From Clostridiales bacterium (GTDB taxonomy: Bacteria; Bacillota; Clostridia; Saccharofermentanales; Saccharofermentanaceae): 64,000 bases of DNA. The number at the start of each line of letters is the position of its first letter. The first letter of the stretch is position 1. The notes beneath the pieces are model-generated. The model was not told the DNA's origin and made no database searches. It saw nothing but the letters and a program-made list of their open reading frames with translations. Both the position numbers and the translations under genes were made by a program. The stretch is from assembly GCA_017513085.1 (NCBI GenBank), contig JAFWDK010000010.1, forward strand, positions 192,001 through 256,000, in the 5' to 3' direction. Positions 51,906-60,397 of the stretch are shown piece after piece.

Positions 51906-53030
51906 TTAAATATATACGTTTCCCGACGCACTTTCCGGATTGAAGATAGAAGAGGCCTGCTCGTCAGTAAGTGTAATTCCGAACAGATCTTTGTAATAAT
52001 CTTTAGTTTCTTTGGTGATGTCGATATCAGCAAAAAGATCCGGATATGCGCATTTGGCCAGGAAGAGAAGAGTGATAGGTGTATCTGCACCCGGCGTGTA
52101 GCTTCTGTACATACCTAAAGGCATCTTAAAGACCTGCTTGTCCTTAATTGCTTTCACTTCGCTCCAGTCATAGTTTCCGATCGTATTGTCGTAGAGATCC
52201 TGAGGGTATGCCTGGTTAAAGTTGGTAATAAATATCAGATCCGGGTTCCATGTGTAGATCTGTTCAATGTTTACCGCAACCGAGTTGTCTGTCGTTAATT
52301 CTTCGCCTACGTTTACTGCACCGATTGCTTCCGCCCAGAATTCACCGAAGAAAAGCTTTCCGGATGTAGTAATACTGGTGTCGCTGATCTGGAAAAGGAA
52401 GAAAACGCGTCGTTTGTCTTCCGGTTTTAATGAAGAAACACGTTCTTGTACAAGTTTGTAGATTTCATTGGAACGTTTGGCGACTTTGTCAGCCTTTTCG
52501 TTCTCTGCAAAGATCTCACCTAACAGTGCAAACCAGTTATTCAGTGTTTCAATCGTATTGTACTGCCACTTGTTTACGGAAACTCCGATTGCCGCGAATC
52601 CGCGTGATCTTAAAAGTTCGCCTAATTCCTTGTTGGAGCCGCTGTAGAAGACGACATCCGGTTCGAGTTTGGTAAGTTCTTCGATGTTTACATTAGAACC
52701 GTCCATGAACGATGTGGAGGCTTTCAGGATATCCGGATAAAGCTGGCCGAGAAGACCATTCTTGGCTGCGATCATGCTGGCTTCGTTCATTCCAACTATC
52801 TTTTCTGCGGAATCAAAGAAAACGGTCAGTACAGAAGGAAGAGGGAGAATGTCACACACGACAATGCGGTCGATCTTGTTTTTTACTTCGACCTGTACGC
52901 CGTTGTGATCCGTAACGATATGCGTCCCGTTTTCATCTTTCTTTTCCGTTTTTTTGCAAGCCACGCTACTGAAACATACAAGTGCTGTCAGCAAGGCAAG
53001 GATCAAGGAAATACTGCGTTTGAAATTCAT
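51906..53030 (-). CDS. ABC transporter substrate-binding lipoprotein, class III (BtuF/FecB/HmuT-like)
   Basis: Lipobox SVAC; VTD..G..V, IDRIV, N.EEL..L.PD.V, V..EQI..WNPD.I, AIK..QV. Confidence 0.9.
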   Translation of the reverse strand: MNFKRSISLILALLTALVCFSSVACKKTEKKDENGTHIVTDHNGVQVEVKNKIDRIVVCDILPLPSVLTVFFDSAEKIVGMNEASMIAAKNGLLGQLYPDILKASTSFMDGSNVNIEELTKLEPDVVFYSGSNKELGELLRSRGFAAIGVSVNKWQYNTIETLNNWFALLGEIFAENEKADKVAKRSNEIYKLVQERVSSLKPEDKRRVFFLFQISDTSITTSGKLFFGEFWAEAIGAVNVGEELTTDNSVAVNIEQIYTWNPDLIFITNFNQAYPQDLYDNTIGNYDWSEVKAIKDKQVFKMPLGMYRSYTPGADTPITLLFLAKCAYPDLFADIDITKETKDYYKDLFGITLTDEQASSIFNPESASGNVYI

Positions 53031-53050
53031 GTGTTTTTTACCTTCTTTTC

Positions 53051-54190
53051 TTAAAGTTTTTCGGCAATATATGAAATATCACCGATCAAGTTAGGAATAT
53101 CTTTTCGAAAGATCCTTCCGGAGTAGGCTTCATGCGGAAGAGCGATGAATGCTGCCTTTTCCGTCAGAACATTTCGGTAAATAGGGTCGGAAATGACCGT
53201 TCCGGCGCCGCGAAGAGCATCGTCAATGTCTTCTTCGTAAGGCGTGTAACGATCACAAGAACGTAACTTCGGTCCATCGTTGGTGGGACAAAGCACGGAA
53301 AAATGTCTATTGGTTTCCAGGGCAAGTGCTTTTGCCAAGGAAAGTGAAGAAATCTCTTCTCCGATGATGAAGCAGCCGTCTTCCGTTTCAGGATCATTGA
53401 AATCGATTGCCGCTTCTTTTCCGTCAGCGAGAAGAGATAGAGTTTCCAGTATCTTGCCGGTTAACTGAGAGCCATAAGGAACTGCCTCGAGATACGGGGT
53501 CCCGAAAGTCTCTTTCAGGTACTCCGCCGTGGCGCGGCCTGTCGAAGAAACAACCAGGTTTACACTGGCCGAACCGATATTCTCTATGGATTCCCAGGTC
53601 GTATTCATCGCAAGAGTAGCGTTGACTGTCCAGCCGTTTTTCTCGAAAAGCTCCCGAAGCGACTCGCATTGACCGTTGGTGGAGAAATCAAGCGGAGTAA
53701 GCCCGATTATGTTGAGGACGCGATTCCCGCTTGGGGTTATTTCTTTTATTGAAAAGCGCTCAACGATTGCACGTAGTGCCATGGAAGCTCCGGAAACGTA
53801 GGTTTTCATTCCCGTGGTGGAGAAGCCGAATGCCGGGATCCCGGTTTCGTTTTCAATCTGGAATGCGACACTTTCCGCGTCAAAACCTGTCATGGCCGGA
53901 ATCGGTGTTCCCGCAATCGCTATGAAGCGAGGGTGAAAACGCTTAGCTTCTGTGACGATATCCTCGATCAGTTTGTTATCGTCGCCCATGATGGCTTCGA
54001 GTTCTGAGATAGCCGATACGAAAAGCATGCTGTCCATATCGAACCATCTTGGCTCGTCGTGTGTGGTGTAAGTGGAGTTGCAGCCGGATGCATCATGAAT
54101 GATGACCATTCCGCCGAGTTCAAATAGCATTGATGCGACGCCAAAAGCATCTGCACTATATGTAGATAAAATTCTGCTTGTTTGTTTCAT
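53051..54190 (-). CDS. Nitrogenase component 1-like subunit (beta/BchB-like)
   Basis: IIHDASGC, AIMG...KL, AMTG.D, NIIG.TP.D, NLVVS..G..AEYL...FGTPY. ATGA overlap with the upstream gene. Confidence 0.85.
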   Translation of the reverse strand: MKQTSRILSTYSADAFGVASMLFELGGMVIIHDASGCNSTYTTHDEPRWFDMDSMLFVSAISELEAIMGDDNKLIEDIVTEAKRFHPRFIAIAGTPIPAMTGFDAESVAFQIENETGIPAFGFSTTGMKTYVSGASMALRAIVERFSIKEITPSGNRVLNIIGLTPLDFSTNGQCESLRELFEKNGWTVNATLAMNTTWESIENIGSASVNLVVSSTGRATAEYLKETFGTPYLEAVPYGSQLTGKILETLSLLADGKEAAIDFNDPETEDGCFIIGEEISSLSLAKALALETNRHFSVLCPTNDGPKLRSCDRYTPYEEDIDDALRGAGTVISDPIYRNVLTEKAAFIALPHEAYSGRIFRKDIPNLIGDISYIAEKL

Positions 54191-55518
54191 ATACAGCTTT
54201 CGCACCCCCATGCTTTTTTCTGGATCAATGTACGGATGTCTTTTTCGTTTTCAACAGCATCCAGCATCAGGCGGCAAAGCTCAGTGATTGCCTGATAACC
54301 GTACAGACCGCCATTTTCGACAATGTTGACAAAGTGCGGGGCGGTATTGAAATGAGCAGCTTTTTGACCGATACAAAGATAATCAGAAGCCTTCCGGTCG
54401 GAGGCGAAGCGCATTTGCGCATCAAGAGTCGGCCAGATCTCCAGATCCGGTTCTTGCTGACAGAGGTAATCGAAATCGCTTTTTTCTTCGCCGGTAAAAG
54501 AATCCGCATAGACTCTTTTTACATTGAATCCATGAGAAAGAAGGAGACGAGCCAATCCGAGCGGGCGGCTGAAAGCGGCAAAATCAATAGCTATCGGTGT
54601 CTGACCGATCGTTTCTTTCACTTTGGATAATGACTCTTCGCAAAGGGACTCTTCCTTATCAAAGTCGGGAAGCCGGATCGGAACATGAAAGGCCAGTTCC
54701 CGGACATTCTTTCTGATTTCCTCATAACTGAATGTGAAGGGGAGATACAGGAGCTTTCCGCCGAGACGGGCCTGCAGATCTTCTCCGCCGGCCTTGGCAG
54801 ACGGATAATCGGCGATATAGTATTCCGCCGCCGCCATTTCCTGGTACTCCTCATAGGTTTTGCATTCGGTAAGCTCATATATCCGGATTCCTGCTTCGGA
54901 AAGAGCTTTATAGAGGGTACTGTCTTTGGCTGTTGAGAAATCGTTCCCTATAAAAGCAACTGTACCTTTCTGAATCGGCCTTGGTTTGAGAAGACTGTAA
55001 AAACGGCTTCTCATGATCTGGTCCGGTGTCCGTCCACTCTTTCTCATGATCGGATTCATGTAACAGTCGGTGAAATCGATATCCGGATGTTTTTTCCTCA
55101 GCTCACGGTACACAAGCTCCAGATCACAGCCGCAAAAATGATGTACGCAACTTGTATACACCAGAACACACGGCGGTTTTTGCGGGAGTTGATCGATAAT
55201 ATGTGATACGCCATCGACGATCAATTCCTCCATGTTCCCGTCGACAAGGTTTTGTTCCTCGACGGCAACCGTGGAAAAGCGTTTCTCTGCCCGCATTTCA
55301 TAAGCAGTTAGGACAACTCCTCGAAGGCAGCTTGCGGCACATACGAAGATTTCATGCGCTTCCGGAATCAGCATCCCTTGGTGCGCTATGTTCCATGTAC
55401 CACGGGCAGGGGAGGAGAATTCCAGTCCTGCGTGAAAAGGACTCGGGAAATTACAATCCCTGATCTTGATCGGTTCTATATCTACCTCATGTCCATTTAC
55501 TTTTCTTAACATGATCAT
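54187..55518 (-). CDS. Nitrogenase component 1-like subunit (alpha/BchN-like)
   Basis: FVCAASC.RG, LV.GN.E, YTSC.HHF.G.D..., GLYGY..I..L; adjacent to a nifH-like gene. Confidence 0.85.
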
Positions 55519-56270
55519 TCCTCACAGCACTGTAATAAATCCGACGCCAGTTTTCTGTATTCCGAAGCCATATCGCTATCCGGAAATGCTTCGATCACAG
55601 TCTTTCCAAGGTCTTCTGCTTCGGTTACAAGATTGGAACGGGAAAGAGTACCTACGATCTTAGAATGAATATCGTCACAAAGTTCCTGAACCTTAGCTTC
55701 TTCGTCTTTGACGTTTCTTCTGTTCAAGATCACTCCACCGAGAGAGGCATAGCCGCGTCCCTGAAAATTATCCAGTGCCATAGCGATATTGGCAGCGGCA
55801 TGAATCGCCATGTTTTCTCCGGAAGTGATGACAAAGACTTTGTCCGCATAGCCGCCTCGCATCGGCATGGAGAAACCACCGCAGACTACGTCTCCAAGAA
55901 CGTCATAAAGGACAACATCGGGTTTAAATACCTCGTATGCCCCCTTTTCTTTTAACTTGTCCAGTGCGGCGATGATTCCTCGGCCGGCACAGCCAAGCCC
56001 CGGAGTCGGACCACCTGCTTCGACGCAGATCACGCCCTTATAGCCGGTTTTGACCATTTCCTCCAACGTAAGTTCTTTACCACGCTCACGAACAAGTTCC
56101 AGAACCGTTTTCACTTTCTTTTCGCCATGAAGCGAAAGTGTGGAATCTGCTTTTGGATCACAGCCGATCTGCATGACGCGCAAGCCGCGGTCAGCCAATG
56201 CTGCGGAGATATTTGAAACGGTCGTGGATTTTCCGATTCCGCCTTTGCCGTAAATCGCGATTTTGATCAT
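55515..56270 (-). CDS. NifH/BchL/CfbC-like iron protein (group IV nitrogenase-like reductase)
   Basis: [43 protein letters not shown]; both [4Fe-4S] cysteines present. Confidence 0.95.
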
Positions 56271-57334
56271 TATAATTCCTCCTTTGCGTAGGTAACTTTA
56301 CAACTAACGTTCGGTATCAGTGAAAGCTGGTGCGCAAGCATACGGATCCTCTCGGCACTGCCGTCCAGATTGACACTGATGAGATACAGATCTCTCTTTC
56401 TATGGGGCATCCCCATACGACCGAATAAAATATCATTGAAATCGTGAAGAATAGAATTGATCCGTTCTGATTCCTCATATTTACTGCAAATGATAGACAG
56501 TGTCGCCAGGACGTCACAATCTTCTTTGCCGGTATTTTTCTGATCTTCGTGATCGGTCAGAGCAACAGGAATGACATTGGCGATCATATTGTTATCTGTC
56601 TCAAACTGGCCGATATAAGCTTTTACGCCAAAAGCACTCTCAATATTCTCTTCCGTGATGATCTTCGGGGTCGGTCCGAAGAGTACTTTTCCGTGATCGA
56701 TCAGGATCGATTTGGCGGAGCGTCGCAGAGCGTGTTCCGGATAATGCGTGTTGAACAAGATGCCGATACCTTCTGAACTGAGTTTCGTGAGAGTATCCAG
56801 TACGATCATCTGGTTCTTAAAATCCAGATTGGATTCCGGTTCGTCAAGTACGATGATCCCTGCGTGCGAAACAAGTGAACGCGCGATCCTTGTCATCTGG
56901 AGCTCACCACCACTGATCTCGTTGCATTTTCTGTCTCGAAGATGAAGAATATGAAGCCGGTCCAGAGTCTGTTCGGCAAGCTCGATGTCTTTTGCTTTCG
57001 GCGTAGAGAACATGCCGATCTGGTTAGTCATGCCCAGCAAAACAGATTGCAGGACTGTATAACTGCCACCTCGATGGTTATTCTGCGGGACATAGGCAAG
57101 CTTGGACCAAAGCCTGGATGGTTCAAAATCAGAAATGTTTTCGCCGTCCAGAGTACTCATGCCATGCGTCCACTTTAAAAGTCCCATGGAGGCGCGAAGC
57201 AACGTGGTTTTTCCGGCACCGTTCGGCCCGAGGATGCTGACCATCTCGCCACTTTCGACAGAGAAATTCACGTTCTCATATAAACTTTTTCCTTTCTTAT
57301 AGCCGAAAGACGCGTCCTTTATTTCAAATTTCAT
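56270..57334 (-). CDS. FecE/BtuD-type ABC ATPase with a C-terminal TM1266-like (ACT/NikR-C) domain
   Basis: [28 protein letters not shown]-terminus INSILHDF...LFGRMGMP matches the 58337-58603 protein. Confidence 0.92.
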
Positions 57335-58350
57335 AAAGACCAGCCTCCTTTCTTTCTCATCAGGAAAATAAAGAAGGGAGCGCCGATGATGGCGGTCAGT
57401 ATTGAGATCGGAAGTTCAGCAGCGGTCATGGAACGTGCAAGGGTATCTACAATGATCAGAAAAGTACCACCGAATGAAATGCATGCAGGTATCAGATGCC
57501 GGTGGTCATTGCCGAATACCATGCGGCACATATGCGGAACGATCAGTCCGACCCAGCCGACCTGGCCACACATGGAGATTGACGAAGCCGTAGCAATGGT
57601 CGCGCATAAAATAGCAATCATGCGGAGCCGTGGCATATTCACACCGGAAGAACAAGACTCCTCTTCGGACAACAAAAGAAGATTCAATCTCCATCTCAAA
57701 AGAAAAAGCACTGTCAGGCTTAGTGCAATCGGAATCACACCGATCAGCAGGGACGAATAGGTGGCGCTCTGAAGACTGCCCATAAGCCAGTACGTGATAG
57801 AAGGAAGCTGCTGTTCCTGATCCGCTGTGAATTTTACAAGAGAGACTAAAGCGGAGAACAAAGATCCCATGATAATACCGGAAAGAACGATCGTATTCAT
57901 GGCTTGATCTTTTCCTTTGGCGGCAAGGATCGTCAAAAATACGGCAAGACAACCGAATCCAAAAGATACCAGTTGCATCGGGATAAGGGAGAAGCCAAGA
58001 AGAATCGACAACACGGCACCGAAACTGCTTCCGCCTGCAACACCGAGCGTATCAGGTGTTGCCAAAGGATTCTGAAACAGGCTCTGAAAAAGCAGCCCGG
58101 CGCAGGAAAGCGCGCTTCCGACAACGAAAGCTAATAAAATGCGAGGAAGGCGAACGTTCCAGATCGTGATGTATGAAAGTTTGCTGACCTCAAATCCGTC
58201 GCTGAAACGTGACAGGACAGCACGAAAAACATCCGGGACAGAAACTATATACCGTCCTACGCAAAGCGAGAAAAGCAGAGCAAGTACCGGAAGTGCGATG
58301 AGAAGAAGAATATATCCGATTTTCCAGGAATCGTTTTTAGTTGCCATCAT
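57331..58350 (-). CDS. FecCD/BtuC-family ABC permease
   Basis: VRLPR, Q.LFQNPLA.PD.LGV..G, WLMGS, GWVGL.VPH, ELPI.ILTA.IGAPFF. Confidence 0.95.
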   Translation of the reverse strand: MMATKNDSWKIGYILLLIALPVLALLFSLCVGRYIVSVPDVFRAVLSRFSDGFEVSKLSYITIWNVRLPRILLAFVVGSALSCAGLLFQSLFQNPLATPDTLGVAGGSSFGAVLSILLGFSLIPMQLVSFGFGCLAVFLTILAAKGKDQAMNTIVLSGIIMGSLFSALVSLVKFTADQEQQLPSITYWLMGSLQSATYSSLLIGVIPIALSLTVLFLLRWRLNLLLLSEEESCSSGVNMPRLRMIAILCATIATASSISMCGQVGWVGLIVPHMCRMVFGNDHRHLIPACISFGGTFLIIVDTLARSMTAAELPISILTAIIGAPFFIFLMRKKGGWSL

Positions 58351-58603
58351 GGTTGGTTACCACGTTAGAATAAGCTGTTTTGCTGGCGATGCCATCTAAA
58401 CGGCCGATCCGTCCGGACAGTGTATTGATATCGTCCTGCGGAGCGTCGATAGCGATGCTTATGATGCTGATCCCTTTTTCACGATAAGGAATGCCCATTC
58501 TGCCGATGATGTATTTTCCGTATTCGTGCAGGAGAGAATTCAGTTTCTCTACCGATTCGTTTTTTTCAACGATGATGCTGATCACAGCGACTCTGGTTTC
58601 CAT
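58337..58603 (-). CDS. TM1266 family protein (putative iron-only hydrogenase system regulator, ACT/NikR-C fold)
   Basis: METRVAVISIIVE....VE.LN.LLHEY..YIIGRMGIPY......IIS...DAP...IN.LSG.IG.L.G...K; 88 aa. Confidence 0.88.
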   Translation of the reverse strand: METRVAVISIIVEKNESVEKLNSLLHEYGKYIIGRMGIPYREKGISIISIAIDAPQDDINTLSGRIGRLDGIASKTAYSNVVTNHDGN

Positions 58604-58761
58604 AAAAGCCTTTCCGGACGAAAAAAAACATGTCCTTAAAAGACATGGCAACACAAAAATAGCTTAAGCAAGCATATGGTTGTCAGATCTTTCACTCAGT
58701 AATACTTCATGTCAGGCGACATATCTCTAGATAAAGTATCACGGAAACATCAATCAGTCAA
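58604..58761 (-). promoter_or_regulatory. Promoter plus structured 5' leader with an intrinsic terminator (candidate riboswitch/attenuator)
   Basis: Minus-strand TTGACT (58761-58756), 17-bp spacer, TG-n-TACTTT (58738-58733). Hairpin CAUGUC-UUUUAAG-GACAUG-U8 at 58647-58621, upstream of the first start codon. Confidence 0.7.
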
Positions 58762-58771
58762 TGAAATCTGC

Positions 58772-58800
58772 TTGACATATTTACAATAAATCGGTATATT
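58772..58800 (+). promoter_or_regulatory. SigA promoter of tRNA-Thr
   Basis: TTGACA, 17-bp spacer, TATATT. Confidence 0.75.
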
Positions 58801-58820
58801 TGTTGTGCTTCATTGTTGAT

Positions 58821-58895
58821 GCCAATGTGGCTCAGGGGTAGAGCAATTCACTCGTAATGAATAGGCCGTGGGTTCGATTCCCACCATTGGCTCCA
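58821..58895 (+). tRNA. tRNA-Thr (anticodon CGT)
   Basis: Acceptor GCCAATG/CATTGGC, anticodon arm ATTCA-CTCGTAA-TGAAT, GGTTCGATTCC, encoded CCA; 75 nt. Confidence 0.97.
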
Positions 58896-58933
58896 GGACA
58901 CGCGACGATATATATCGATGCGTGTCTTTTTTT
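58896..58933 (+). terminator. Terminator after tRNA-Thr
   Basis: GGACACGCG...TGCGTGTCT followed by a T-run. Confidence 0.8.
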
Positions 58934-58984
58934 GTTTGATTTAATGTATAATAATCTTAGTTCGTTAACAGGAGCAGAAAGTAC

Positions 58985-60397
58985 ATGTTTTCAAAGAGTC
59001 AGGATAATGTATTTACTATGAAGGCACAAAAACTCATGGCGATCTTATTGACTCTGTCTTTTTCTTTAGCTTTATTCGGATGCCGGAAGGTGAACAGTTC
59101 TTTTCCATCTGTAGAAGTAACCAGTACAGAAACTACGGAAACCACGACTGTAACGACAGAAACCAAGCATTTCACACACACGATCTCAATTGCTTCTCCA
59201 TTGTCATATGAGACTTGCGTATACATTGCCAAACTATATGCATTGAAGAACAGCGGTCAGCTGGCTGAGGGAGTCAGTGGTGAGAATATCACATTGGATT
59301 ATTTGGACAGCATCGATCTGCCGTTTGCTTTAAATGTCTATAGTACCGCGGAGACGGGATGTAATGCGGATACTTTACGGCAGTGGCAGGAAAGCGGAAG
59401 TTTGCCGGATATCTTTCTGACTGACAGCTTTGACGAGGTGGTACAGGCAGGTTACGCGATCCCTGTTACGCGTTATCTGTCCGATGAGACGCTTCTGACA
59501 CCAGGAAATATTTATCCTAAGATGCTTGAACAGCTTTATTTGAATAATGAGTATTATGGGATCCCGTATCAGGCTTCGGCTTATCTTATGTATGCCGATA
59601 TGGAAGTCCTGAACCGTGCTGGGATCCAGGAAATCTCCTTTAAGCAGGATCTTAATTCTTTTGGCGCAATCCTCGATACTCTTTCCGGTCTGAATGCGGA
59701 AGCTATGGAGATACTTCCGTTTTATCTTGCACAAGGTTTGATCCCTTATCTTCCGATCTCACTTTATGGTGATACGTATCGCTCTGTCCGTGATGGAAAA
59801 ACGCTGAGCAGCAAGAGCTGGAAAGACAGTTTGGAATACTTGAAGACGGTGGTGGCCTCCGGGAAAGCTTATGAGAGTCTTGACACGGAAACTGTTTCCA
59901 CGTTTTTTCAAGGAATGTCCCCCTTGCTGTCTCGCAAAGTCGGGATCTGGGCAGGTTCTTCCGATGAAGTGTCCCGTTACGACAATTATATGCCCAATAC
60001 GCTTGTGATGATGCAGATTCCTTCAACTGACAAGGAAAACTATTCTCCGGCAATGCTTTCCGTGTATCCTCTGTGCATTTCTTCAAGTTGCGATCAGCCG
60101 GCTGAAACTGTGAAGTTCGCATCCTTTATGGCATTGGATGAGGATGCTCTTTTGCTGGCTTCCAGACTTGACCTGAAGGAAGGATTCCTTCCTGTCGTAT
60201 CTTCTTCGACGGTATGGAAGAATATGGTTTCCACGCAGAAATACGGATCTTTTCTTTCGCCGTTTCAATCTCTTATGCAGGATGCGGTCTATATCCCGGC
60301 TGTGACGGAAAAACAAGAATATGAGGCTGATCTTCAGTATATTGCCACGCATTTGGATTCGCTGATCGTAGAGAAGATCACGGAAGAAACGGAGTAG
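58985..60397 (+). CDS. Extracellular solute-binding lipoprotein (family 1, sugar-type), orphan
   Basis: Lipobox LFGC, Thr linker, SG.LPDIF, YGIPY.....LMY motifs. True start may be a downstream ATG. Confidence 0.75.
   Translation: MFSKSQDNVFTMKAQKLMAILLTLSFSLALFGCRKVNSSFPSVEVTSTETTETTTVTTETKHFTHTISIASPLSYETCVYIAKLYALKNSGQLAEGVSGENITLDYLDSIDLPFALNVYSTAETGCNADTLRQWQESGSLPDIFLTDSFDEVVQAGYAIPVTRYLSDETLLTPGNIYPKMLEQLYLNNEYYGIPYQASAYLMYADMEVLNRAGIQEISFKQDLNSFGAILDTLSGLNAEAMEILPFYLAQGLIPYLPISLYGDTYRSVRDGKTLSSKSWKDSLEYLKTVVASGKAYESLDTETVSTFFQGMSPLLSRKVGIWAGSSDEVSRYDNYMPNTLVMMQIPSTDKENYSPAMLSVYPLCISSSCDQPAETVKFASFMALDEDALLLASRLDLKEGFLPVVSSSTVWKNMVSTQKYGSFLSPFQSLMQDAVYIPAVTEKQEYEADLQYIATHLDSLIVEKITEETE

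Follow-up and report, generated by a model that had tools for sequence, protein, structure and literature searches.

A conserved leader hairpin associated with TM1266 genes in Clostridia and its possible role in attenuation of a nitrogenase-like operon

In the Bacillus pyr operon, the first gene codes for the regulator PyrR which, in its effector-bound form, stabilises an anti-antiterminator hairpin so that the terminator forms. HutP (hut operon) and TRAP (trp operon) bind single-stranded triplet repeats, HutP acting as an antiterminator (genes on) and TRAP switching its genes off. Here, we describe a leader hairpin from a Clostridiales bacterium (assembly GCA_017513085.1). The window is the whole stretch of 64,000 nucleotides (nt) that was analysed (contig JAFWDK010000010.1, positions 192,001 to 256,000), and positions are those within it. 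The hairpin precedes an operon on the minus strand that codes for a TM1266-family protein, an ABC importer and nitrogenase-like proteins. The data support a conserved cis-regulatory leader element without an Rfam 15 match. We read the hairpin as the anti-antiterminator of an attenuator, most likely held closed by ligand-bound TM1266 protein, and assign this reading a probability of roughly 0.45.

The likeness to PyrR concerns the regulator being the product of the operon's first gene, the shutdown via an anti-antiterminator, and three mutually exclusive hairpins. PyrR has, however, a phosphoribosyltransferase fold and another binding loop, whereas the TM1266 fold is ACT/NikR-C-like, as judged from the match to PDB entry 2nzc, and its RNA binding is only proposed. 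With HutP and TRAP, the TM1266 protein would share the character of a small oligomeric, ligand-activated binder of leader RNA, and with TRAP also the off direction. The target here differs, being a structured helix with two purine loops, with a predicted off outcome. A leader hairpin that gates a terminator or a ribosome-binding site belongs to a well-known mechanism class; novelty would lie in the RNA family, in the genes that it regulates and in the possible ACT-like RNA-binding effector.

The hairpin core and its RNA family

The leader contains the following elements.

58689..58715, minus strand: conserved hairpin core, ~27 nt (model R1, pair counts, RNAfold, descriptor)
58717..58721, minus strand: 5' strand (UGUCG) of a weak closing helix, pairing with 58685-58681 (RNAfold on 57-69-nt transcripts)
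58677..58693, minus strand: predicted antiterminator 5' strand GAAAGAUCUGACAACCA, composed of the hairpin 3' half and its flank (RNAfold)
58638..58655, minus strand: predicted antiterminator 3' strand UGUGUUGCCAUGUCUUUU, overlapping the terminator 5' arm (RNAfold)
58621..58647, minus strand: intrinsic terminator, a stem-loop (58647-58629) followed by U8 (58628-58621) (consensus scan)

The core starts with the base pairs C58715-G58689 and U58714-A58690. These are followed by a first internal loop with GA (58713-12) opposite AA (58692-91), the inner stem CAU/GUG (58711-09 with 58695-93), a second internal loop with GA (58708-07) opposite GA (58697-96), and the distal stem AGU/ACU (58706-04 with 58700-58698), which carries a 3-nt terminal loop (58703-01). 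The window's hairpin has the family core CUGA(C)...(G)AAAG (58715-58711 and 58693-58689), with the invariant base and GA opposite AA, and its two stems CAU/GUG and AGU/ACU are separated by GA/GA. Located on the coding strand, the hairpin is followed after 85 nt by the ATG of the only standalone TM1266 gene of the genome. In the leaders from the same genus, the conserved block reads CUGACAURAAGUnnnACURARUGAAAGA. RNAfold predicts the same hairpin in all seven of these leaders, either as the minimum free energy (MFE) fold or with the motif pairs enforced; enforcing them in the window's full-length leader costs 2.6 kcal/mol over the MFE fold.

A preliminary description, made from the letters of the window alone, had listed a number of short complementarities, all of which are present on the minus strand where it placed them. 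These include GACAUG (58713-58708) and CAUGUC (58647-58642), with an RNAduplex energy of -8.5 kcal/mol, as well as AUGUC (58722-58718) and GA...CAUAU (58684-58674). Taken alone, the short complementarities of the leader are not significant; the conserved hairpin that lies among them is what exceeds chance. The last of them had been thought to close a purine-rich core by pairing with AUAUG-UC; the letters are there, but the core is actually a hairpin that is interrupted by two internal loops, both purine-purine.

For a sample of 80 TM1266-family genes from across the class, the upstream regions were inspected. Many of these leaders share a common plan, in which CUGA is followed by a stem, a purine-purine loop, a further stem whose length varies and (G)AAAG(G); a terminator usually comes next. 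The length of the distal stem ranges from 3 bp to an insertion of ~100 nt (L060). Three models were built: R1 for the short-stem subtype that includes the window (16 seeds), R2 for a long-stem subtype with a GGG/CCC inner stem (20 seeds), and R3 from 52 distinct short-stem sequences. Just 5' of the main hairpin, seven leaders (L051, L064, L066, L112, L040, L068 and L103) seem to have an additional unit that is weaker (CUGA/CUAA ... GAAG).

The 52 leaders were aligned with MAFFT without structural input. The base pairs C-G and U-A are invariant (52/52 each). Column pair 15/38 is CG in 32, UA in 11 and UG in 7 sequences; column pair 19/34 is AU in 35, GC in 15 and GU in 2; column pair 20/33 is AU in 42, UA in 6 and GC in 2. 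Column pair 16/37 is UG in 6 of the 52, and at 17/36 none of them has a standard pair. Compensatory changes are seen in both stems, and smaller alignments are concordant. The covariation score is 0.291, compared to 0.145 +/- 0.013 in shuffles, none of which (0/500) reaches it; slid controls were all well below. Thus, the covariation among homologous TM1266 leaders that the preliminary description had named as a check of its proposal is found.

A strict structure-aware descriptor, which was written after the window's sequence had been seen, has two sites in the whole 3.06-Mb genome (both strands) and none in five block-shuffled genomes. One of the sites is this leader, and the other is inside a transposase-like open reading frame (ORF). 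In our view, the assignment of the window's copy to the hairpin family is well supported by the descriptor result together with the position before the TM1266 gene. Model R1 has a single significant copy in this genome. Two weak R1 matches (E 3.1 and 6.7), located before a CobW-like GTPase gene and a hydrolase gene, were taken as noise, and R2, the model of the other subtype, has no match in the genome.

Rfam 15 was searched at several levels. Over 57500-60000, a tRNA was the only real match at E <= 10, and the leader strand had no match, which agrees with the earlier view that the leader is not a cobalamin, molybdenum cofactor (Moco), S-adenosylmethionine (SAM), thiamine pyrophosphate (TPP), NiCo or T-box element. 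At 34 related loci (E <= 1 or 5), no match overlaps the hairpin core; matches to MicA (L061) and anti-hemB (L047) were rejected, being below gathering scores and located over the downstream leader, off the core. There were no matches at 11 nitrogenase-like loci at the gathering threshold. A text search of the literature, with supplements and subscription journals outside its coverage, found no paper that describes the element.

A different, strongly conserved leader is found in twelve species of the window's genus (L008-L019) that have TM1266 followed by hydG. It consists of UUGCCUAAGGGGAAGCGGAAUAACUGCUGAUAGCAAGG and a terminator, and is located ~60-170 nt upstream of these genes. Rfam had no match in the four leaders that were scanned, and R1 had none in any of the twelve. 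This leader could represent the same core in circularly permuted form, with the GAAG strand first and the CUGA strand second.

Distribution in Clostridia and in nitrogenase-like loci

Models R1, R2 and R3 were each run on one sample of 151 Clostridia genomes (E <= 0.01), and matched 8, 16 and 15 genomes, respectively. By hand tally, 29 genomes bear the motif besides the window's own. In 24 of the 29, the match precedes a TM1266 gene on the same strand by no more than ~500 nt. In the other five, it precedes hydE-hydG or hydG, and the TM1266 gene lies elsewhere. No model matched at any other location in the 151 genomes. Many of the matched genomes had supplied seeds; the non-seed matches (four hydE leaders for R1; G042, G061, G162 and G177 for R2; G049, G051, G073, G099, G116 and G158 for R3) show the same placement. 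All 29 genomes encode TM1266.

The gene after TM1266, in 35 of the 40 motif-bearing TM1266 leaders, codes for a HydE/HydG-family protein in 29 cases, an SsuA-family binding protein in three and HydF in one. In motif-bearing L023, the gene after TM1266 is, by eye, a lipoprotein-like ORF. The SsuA-family (aliphatic sulfonate type) and lipoprotein-like neighbours are hints that the regulon extends past hydrogenase maturation.

A search with the NifD-like protein against species-representative genomes gave 343 relatives, and 80 loci were kept. Nearly all are labelled as metagenome-assembled genomes or uncultured isolates, most of them from rumen, gut or feces, and they belong to Lachnospiraceae, Oscillospiraceae, Mogibacterium, Anaerovoracaceae and others. 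The cluster begins with a TM1266 gene in every locus whose contig extends that far (65 of the 80, including one frameshifted copy). (The TM1266 gene of G013 from the window's genus, handled as L022/L038/L148, matches in two frames, residues 1-43 and 37-88, because of either a frameshift or an assembly error.)

In the 80 loci, model R3 matched 41 times at E <= 0.01 and twice more when the threshold was relaxed to E <= 1, a total of 43, every one of them on the operon strand. At the stricter threshold, 39 are upstream of TM1266, one precedes a HydE-like gene (L172) and one is between TM1266 and the permease gene. The last of these layouts holds for 23 loci (L183, L188, L193-L195, L200, L203-L213, L216, L218, L221, L222, L226 and L227), in which the hairpin and a terminator sit 3' of TM1266, before the next gene, and TM1266 has its own short, motif-free leader. 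This layout, with the putative regulator gene upstream of the regulated terminator, is that of hutP. Of these "between" copies, 3 of 23 reach R3 E <= 1, and the other 20 were identified by eye and regular expression only; the 18 copies that were aligned with MAFFT have the same architecture, with 83.9% of cells paired. Taken together, the hairpin adjoins TM1266 in 62 of the 65 loci (39 R3 matches upstream and the 23 "between" loci). Among the remaining three, two lack the motif and the third is truncated at the end of its contig. R2 has no match in the 80 loci.

A loose regular expression gave 232 matches in the 80 loci. It was rejected as too unspecific and served only to locate copies seen by eye. 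The strict descriptor has 34 sites in these loci, all on the operon strand: 17 upstream of TM1266, one between TM1266 and the permease gene, 14 over the start codon of the binding-protein gene and two elsewhere. Thus, 14 of the 80 loci have a second hairpin copy over the start codon of the terminal binding-protein gene, as in L204:8684-8713 (CUGAUUAUGAAGAG..UCUGAGUAAGAAG). The others are L183, L188, L195, L196, L203, L205, L207, L210, L211, L212, L218, L226 and L227. There is no second copy at the start of the window's binding-protein gene (53030). Many loci have an extra gene before that for the NifH-like protein (~1.1-kb gaps between ATPase and NifH-like), which the window's operon does not have. 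In L172:4014-5240, the extra gene codes for a HydE-like radical SAM protein, with a hairpin and terminator directly 5'.

Predicted switching and the operon

The preliminary description had placed an intrinsic terminator 17 nt before the ATG, and a consensus scan confirmed it. The hairpin CAUGUCUUUUAAGGACAUG (58647-58629) has 8 pairs, of which 3 are G-C, so that the stem is weak in G-C, and a 3-nt loop. With the directly following U tract, it forms an intrinsic terminator (58647-58621) upstream of the gene, ending 17 nt 5' of the ATG (58603). The scan found 2 terminator-like sites in 1 kb, compared to 0.6 +/- 0.8 in shuffles. Only three of the seven same-genus leaders (the window, G013 and G020) have a terminator-like hairpin. 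In the four others (G004, G008, G009 and G021), the conserved 30-nt block leads directly into the ribosome-binding site. Because these four orthologues are devoid of a terminator, it is not the conserved part of the leader.

RNAfold predicts that the hairpin forms in transcripts of 57-69 nt. In transcripts of 91 and 100 nt, 58693-58677 pairs with 58655-58638 (-17.1 and -18.7 kcal/mol), and this antiterminator and the terminator are mutually exclusive by predicted pairing. The region of the antiterminator 3' strand, GUGUUGCCAYGUCUUU, is kept in the three long same-genus leaders. In the antiterminator conformer, GACAU pairs with the 5' AUGUC as a small hairpin, so that the sequestration of GACAUG proposed earlier is seen in the predicted fold. 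It had also been proposed that the 5' GACAUG itself is the antiterminator. This pairing is possible (-8.5 kcal/mol), but RNAfold prefers the hairpin 3' half, and the pairing contains a mismatch in G020. The idea that the antiterminators of the window and G020 differ by a compensatory change was rejected: pairing is kept in a shifted register, and no covariation is claimed. In the wider set of 44 motif-bearing leaders, 38 have a terminator according to a script. When the 3' core of each of these 38 is paired with its terminator 5' arm, the mean duplex energy is -10.7 kcal/mol, compared to -8.0 kcal/mol with shuffled arms (mean z -1.14).

According to this model, the closed hairpin would make its 3' strand unavailable to the terminator 5' arm; the terminator would form, and the TM1266-ABC-nitrogenase-like operon would be off. 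When the hairpin is open, the antiterminator would form, leading to read-through. In relatives without a terminator, the hairpin base would cover the ribosome-binding site, giving the same off logic at the level of translation; the hairpin base of the four short leaders contains the GGAUC or AAGGAUC that belongs to this site. A stabilised hairpin is read as off because all three platforms (terminator, ribosome-binding site and start-codon overlap) predict this. Thus, the hairpin probably switches genes off by favouring the terminator.

The surrounding locus has the following features.

58821..58895, plus strand: tRNA-Thr(CGU), divergent, with its promoter at 58772-58800, bordering the leader region
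58756..58761, minus strand: predicted -35 box TTGACT (read from the sequence)
58733..58741, minus strand: predicted extended -10 region TG-n-TACTTT, with a 17-nt spacer from the -35 box
58609..58615, minus strand: ribosome-binding site GGAAAGG (read from the sequence)
58337..58603, minus strand: TM1266-family gene, 88 aa, first gene of the operon, ATG at 58603 (profile matches)
58350-57331, minus strand: FecCD-type permease (profile matches)
57334-56270, minus strand: ABC ATPase with C-terminal TM1266-like domain (profile matches)
56270-55515, minus strand: NifH-like protein (profile matches)
55518-54187 and 54211-53051, minus strand: two NifD/K-like proteins (profile matches)
53030-51906, minus strand: Peripla_BP_2 binding protein (profile matches)

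The -35 box is a prediction and does not appear in the output of the consensus scan; TTGAC is present in all seven same-genus leaders. For the -10 region, six of them have TGnTAnnnT and one has GGnTAnnnT. Transcription is expected to start at ~58727, resulting in a leader of ~125 nt. We infer this start, the direction of the switch and, above all, the identity of the effector; the hairpin, its conservation and covariation and its association with particular genes are observed, and the competing pairings are predicted from folding. One assembled contig of 377 nt, from a run of uncertain kind, spans 58404-58780; such contigs carry no information on start, end or strand. A metatranscriptome contig (run X3, 226 nt, 2 differences) spans 58309-58534, covering the 3' part of TM1266 and the start of the permease gene, with strand and ends not readable.

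The operon consists of seven genes with TM1266 first, the genes after it spanning 51906..58350 on the minus strand. It is kept in six further species of the genus and in one genome of another family. The tRNA-Thr gene is beside it in all seven same-genus loci, with Rfam tRNA matches in the four loci that were scanned. The TM1266 protein is matched by PF21699 (110.7 bits), by TIGR03959 (114.6 bits, cut-off 60.8) and by PDB entry 2nzc (E 4.9e-12). HydE is encoded elsewhere in the genome (563.6 bits), and neither a leader nor the motif was found for its gene. HydG had no match in the genome with TIGR03955.

Residues 276-350 of the ABC ATPase (window positions 56270-56495) form a TM1266-like domain of 75 residues, which is 32% identical to the standalone TM1266 protein and keeps GRMGxPxR. 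Full-length fusions of this kind are rare: in a 299-genome sample of the class, they were found only in the window's genome and G292.

Candidate effector, alternatives and implications

Several lines of evidence favour TM1266 as the effector. The element adjoins the TM1266 gene on either side, and in the 23 "between" loci, the protein is made outside the switch. The helix has two CUGA/RAAG modules, and because these are related by a pseudo-dyad, it would suit a dimeric binder. The residues R4 and K43 and a Gly-rich loop (G64, G67 and G71) are conserved in standalone TM1266 proteins and lacking in the 49 ATPase-fused domains, while N22, H26, Y28, GRMGxP, D53 and K75 are common to both. TM1266 is favoured because the standalone proteins conserve residues that are lacking in the fused domains, and the two share the presumed ligand site. 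The second hairpin copy over the start codon of the binding-protein gene in 14 loci is also counted in favour of TM1266. Finally, the family has long been annotated as "putative iron-only hydrogenase system regulator" and is not known to have a DNA-binding domain, which also points to TM1266 as the effector. TM1266 with a small-molecule ligand would hold the hairpin closed, in a feedback loop like those of PyrR and TRAP.

Other observations weigh against this reading. On the protein side, TM1266, a putative RNA binder, is not basic (mean net charge ~0) and carries no known RNA-binding motif; GRMGxPYR, its most conserved motif, is more likely a small-molecule site than an RNA site, because it is common to the ATPase-fused domain. 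The co-occurrence of motif and TM1266 does not discriminate, since the motif mostly adjoins the TM1266 gene and the five cases with only hydE/hydG are uninformative. None of 11 HydG-positive, TM1266-negative genomes has a match, but this is a weak hand tally with no phylogenetic correction. On the RNA side, the MFE of the whole leader (-25.0 kcal/mol) is ordinary (z = 0.36; 135 of 200 shuffles fold equally well), and the 5' 88 nt have z = 1.03; with these values, fold energy was rejected as evidence for structure. R1 matches the window at 58678-58723 with 46.6 bits and R3 with 34.2 bits, scores that are not independent because the window served as a seed of both. Among sequence-only hidden Markov models built without the window's genus, one gave no match at E <= 10 and a second gave 11.1 bits (E 1.4, rank 2). 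The closing helix was rejected as a family feature (-3.25 kcal/mol for cognate flank duplexes and -2.95 kcal/mol for non-cognate ones; permutation p = 0.11). The antiterminator complementarity is modest, if consistent, with only 14 of 38 leaders below z = -1.5.

A switch that depends either on a ligand or on the TM1266 protein had been proposed in the preliminary description, and both options remain the leading readings. In the former, which we regard as somewhat unlikely though still a serious contender, the RNA would bind a small molecule or a metal ion directly, with a metal ion or a cofactor intermediate as possible ligands; binding would stabilise the hairpin, leading to termination or occlusion of the ribosome-binding site, and TM1266 would simply be the commonest gene of the regulon. 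This reading draws on the same structural and platform evidence as TM1266 binding. The use of one core with varied platforms (terminator, occlusion of the ribosome-binding site, start-codon overlap) is typical of riboswitches, tandem units occur in some leaders, copies precede hydE/hydG where TM1266 lies elsewhere, and the conserved TM1266 motif resembles a ligand site, not an RNA site. Metal ions are known to bind at tandem G-A pairs, and there are riboswitches of the small hairpin type. With these and with metal-ion riboswitches, the element shares a short conserved core, terminator or ribosome-binding-site platforms and occasional tandem units; it differs in having no Rfam 15 model match and no evident pocket. 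The conserved part is, however, only an irregular helix of ~12 bp; its purine loops are symmetric (2x2), neither a pocket nor a tertiary contact is obvious, and its distal stem varies from 3 bp to the ~100-nt insertion. Moreover, the element adjoins the TM1266 gene even when this gene is outside the switch, and the 11 genomes mentioned above, for what a weak hand tally is worth, point in the same direction.

Two RNA motifs whose consensus sequences resemble the core were considered and rejected. Kink-turn (box C/D) and hammerhead RNAs also have CUGA opposite GAAA/GAAG and tandem purine-purine pairs. By inspection, the loops here are a symmetric 2x2 without the 3-nt bulge of a kink-turn. As most members read GAAAGG, with GG instead of GA after GAAA, they do not have the second G-A pair of a kink-turn. 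For the hammerhead ribozyme, there is no Rfam match, there are two helices instead of three, and there is no cleavage site.

It is improbable that the attenuator hairpin is bound by another trans factor, a protein or small RNA, with TM1266 only a regulated gene. The RNA evidence would be the same, and nothing ties the hairpin physically to TM1266, but no other gene is consistently adjacent, the constant neighbours being only TM1266 and hydE/hydG. Slightly less probable still is a conserved 5' untranslated structure that does not switch, for example, an mRNA-stability or processing hairpin. The ordinary fold energy of the whole leader and the four of seven orthologues that lack a terminator would fit such a structure, but stability alone would hardly account for the unpaired purines and the CU/AG base, both of them invariant, and there is systematic overlap with terminator arms, ribosome-binding sites and a start codon. 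A DNA operator of a transcription factor just downstream of the promoter would agree with the position (~+12 to +40 from the predicted start) and with the dyad-like symmetry, but it is very improbable because frequent G-U pairs (UG 7/52 at 15/38 and 6/52 at 16/37) and strand specificity (34/34 descriptor sites and all 43 R3 matches) argue for an RNA rather than a DNA element, and the copy lies after a gene and before the terminator in 23 loci.

Returning to TM1266 as the effector, it is tempting to speculate that TM1266 proteins are a new class of ligand-gated RNA-binding attenuators with the CUGA/GAAAG hairpin as operator, a proposal to which we give somewhat less than even odds. In many Clostridia, one sensor fold would then control the transcription of the H-cluster maturase genes hydE, hydG and hydF, the transcription and translation of the uncharacterised nitrogenase-like enzyme and its FecCD-type importer, and, via the fused domain, transporter activity. 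The C-terminal regulatory domain of MetN causes trans-inhibition of an ABC importer. The window's ABC ATPase likewise has an ACT-like sensor domain at its C-terminus, and this copy would inhibit transport directly; the parallel concerns the protein partner, not the RNA.

The earlier expectation that one could read the operon's substrate from the ligand is weakened, because the element elsewhere mostly controls hydE, hydG and TM1266 genes. Many nitrogenase-like groups are still uncharacterised, according to a passage of a 2026 review (PMC13474568). The element gives a handle on two orphans, namely TM1266, for which there is a structure (2nzc) and no known mechanism, and nitrogenase-like clades without an assigned function. 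A hairpin that is widespread in gut and rumen Clostridia ties hydE, hydG and TM1266 to an ABC importer and a nitrogenase-like reductase, and the question of the effector can be addressed directly with an RNA of ~60 nt and a protein of 88 aa. If the RNA binds the ligand, this would be a new riboswitch class, with a ligand that reports on metallocofactor metabolism in gut and rumen anaerobes. If the protein binds, it would be a new, RNA-binding use of the ACT-like fold. Should TM1266 proteins indeed form such a class of attenuators, their ligand would connect the assembly of the hydrogenase cofactor with an orphan nitrogenase-like system.

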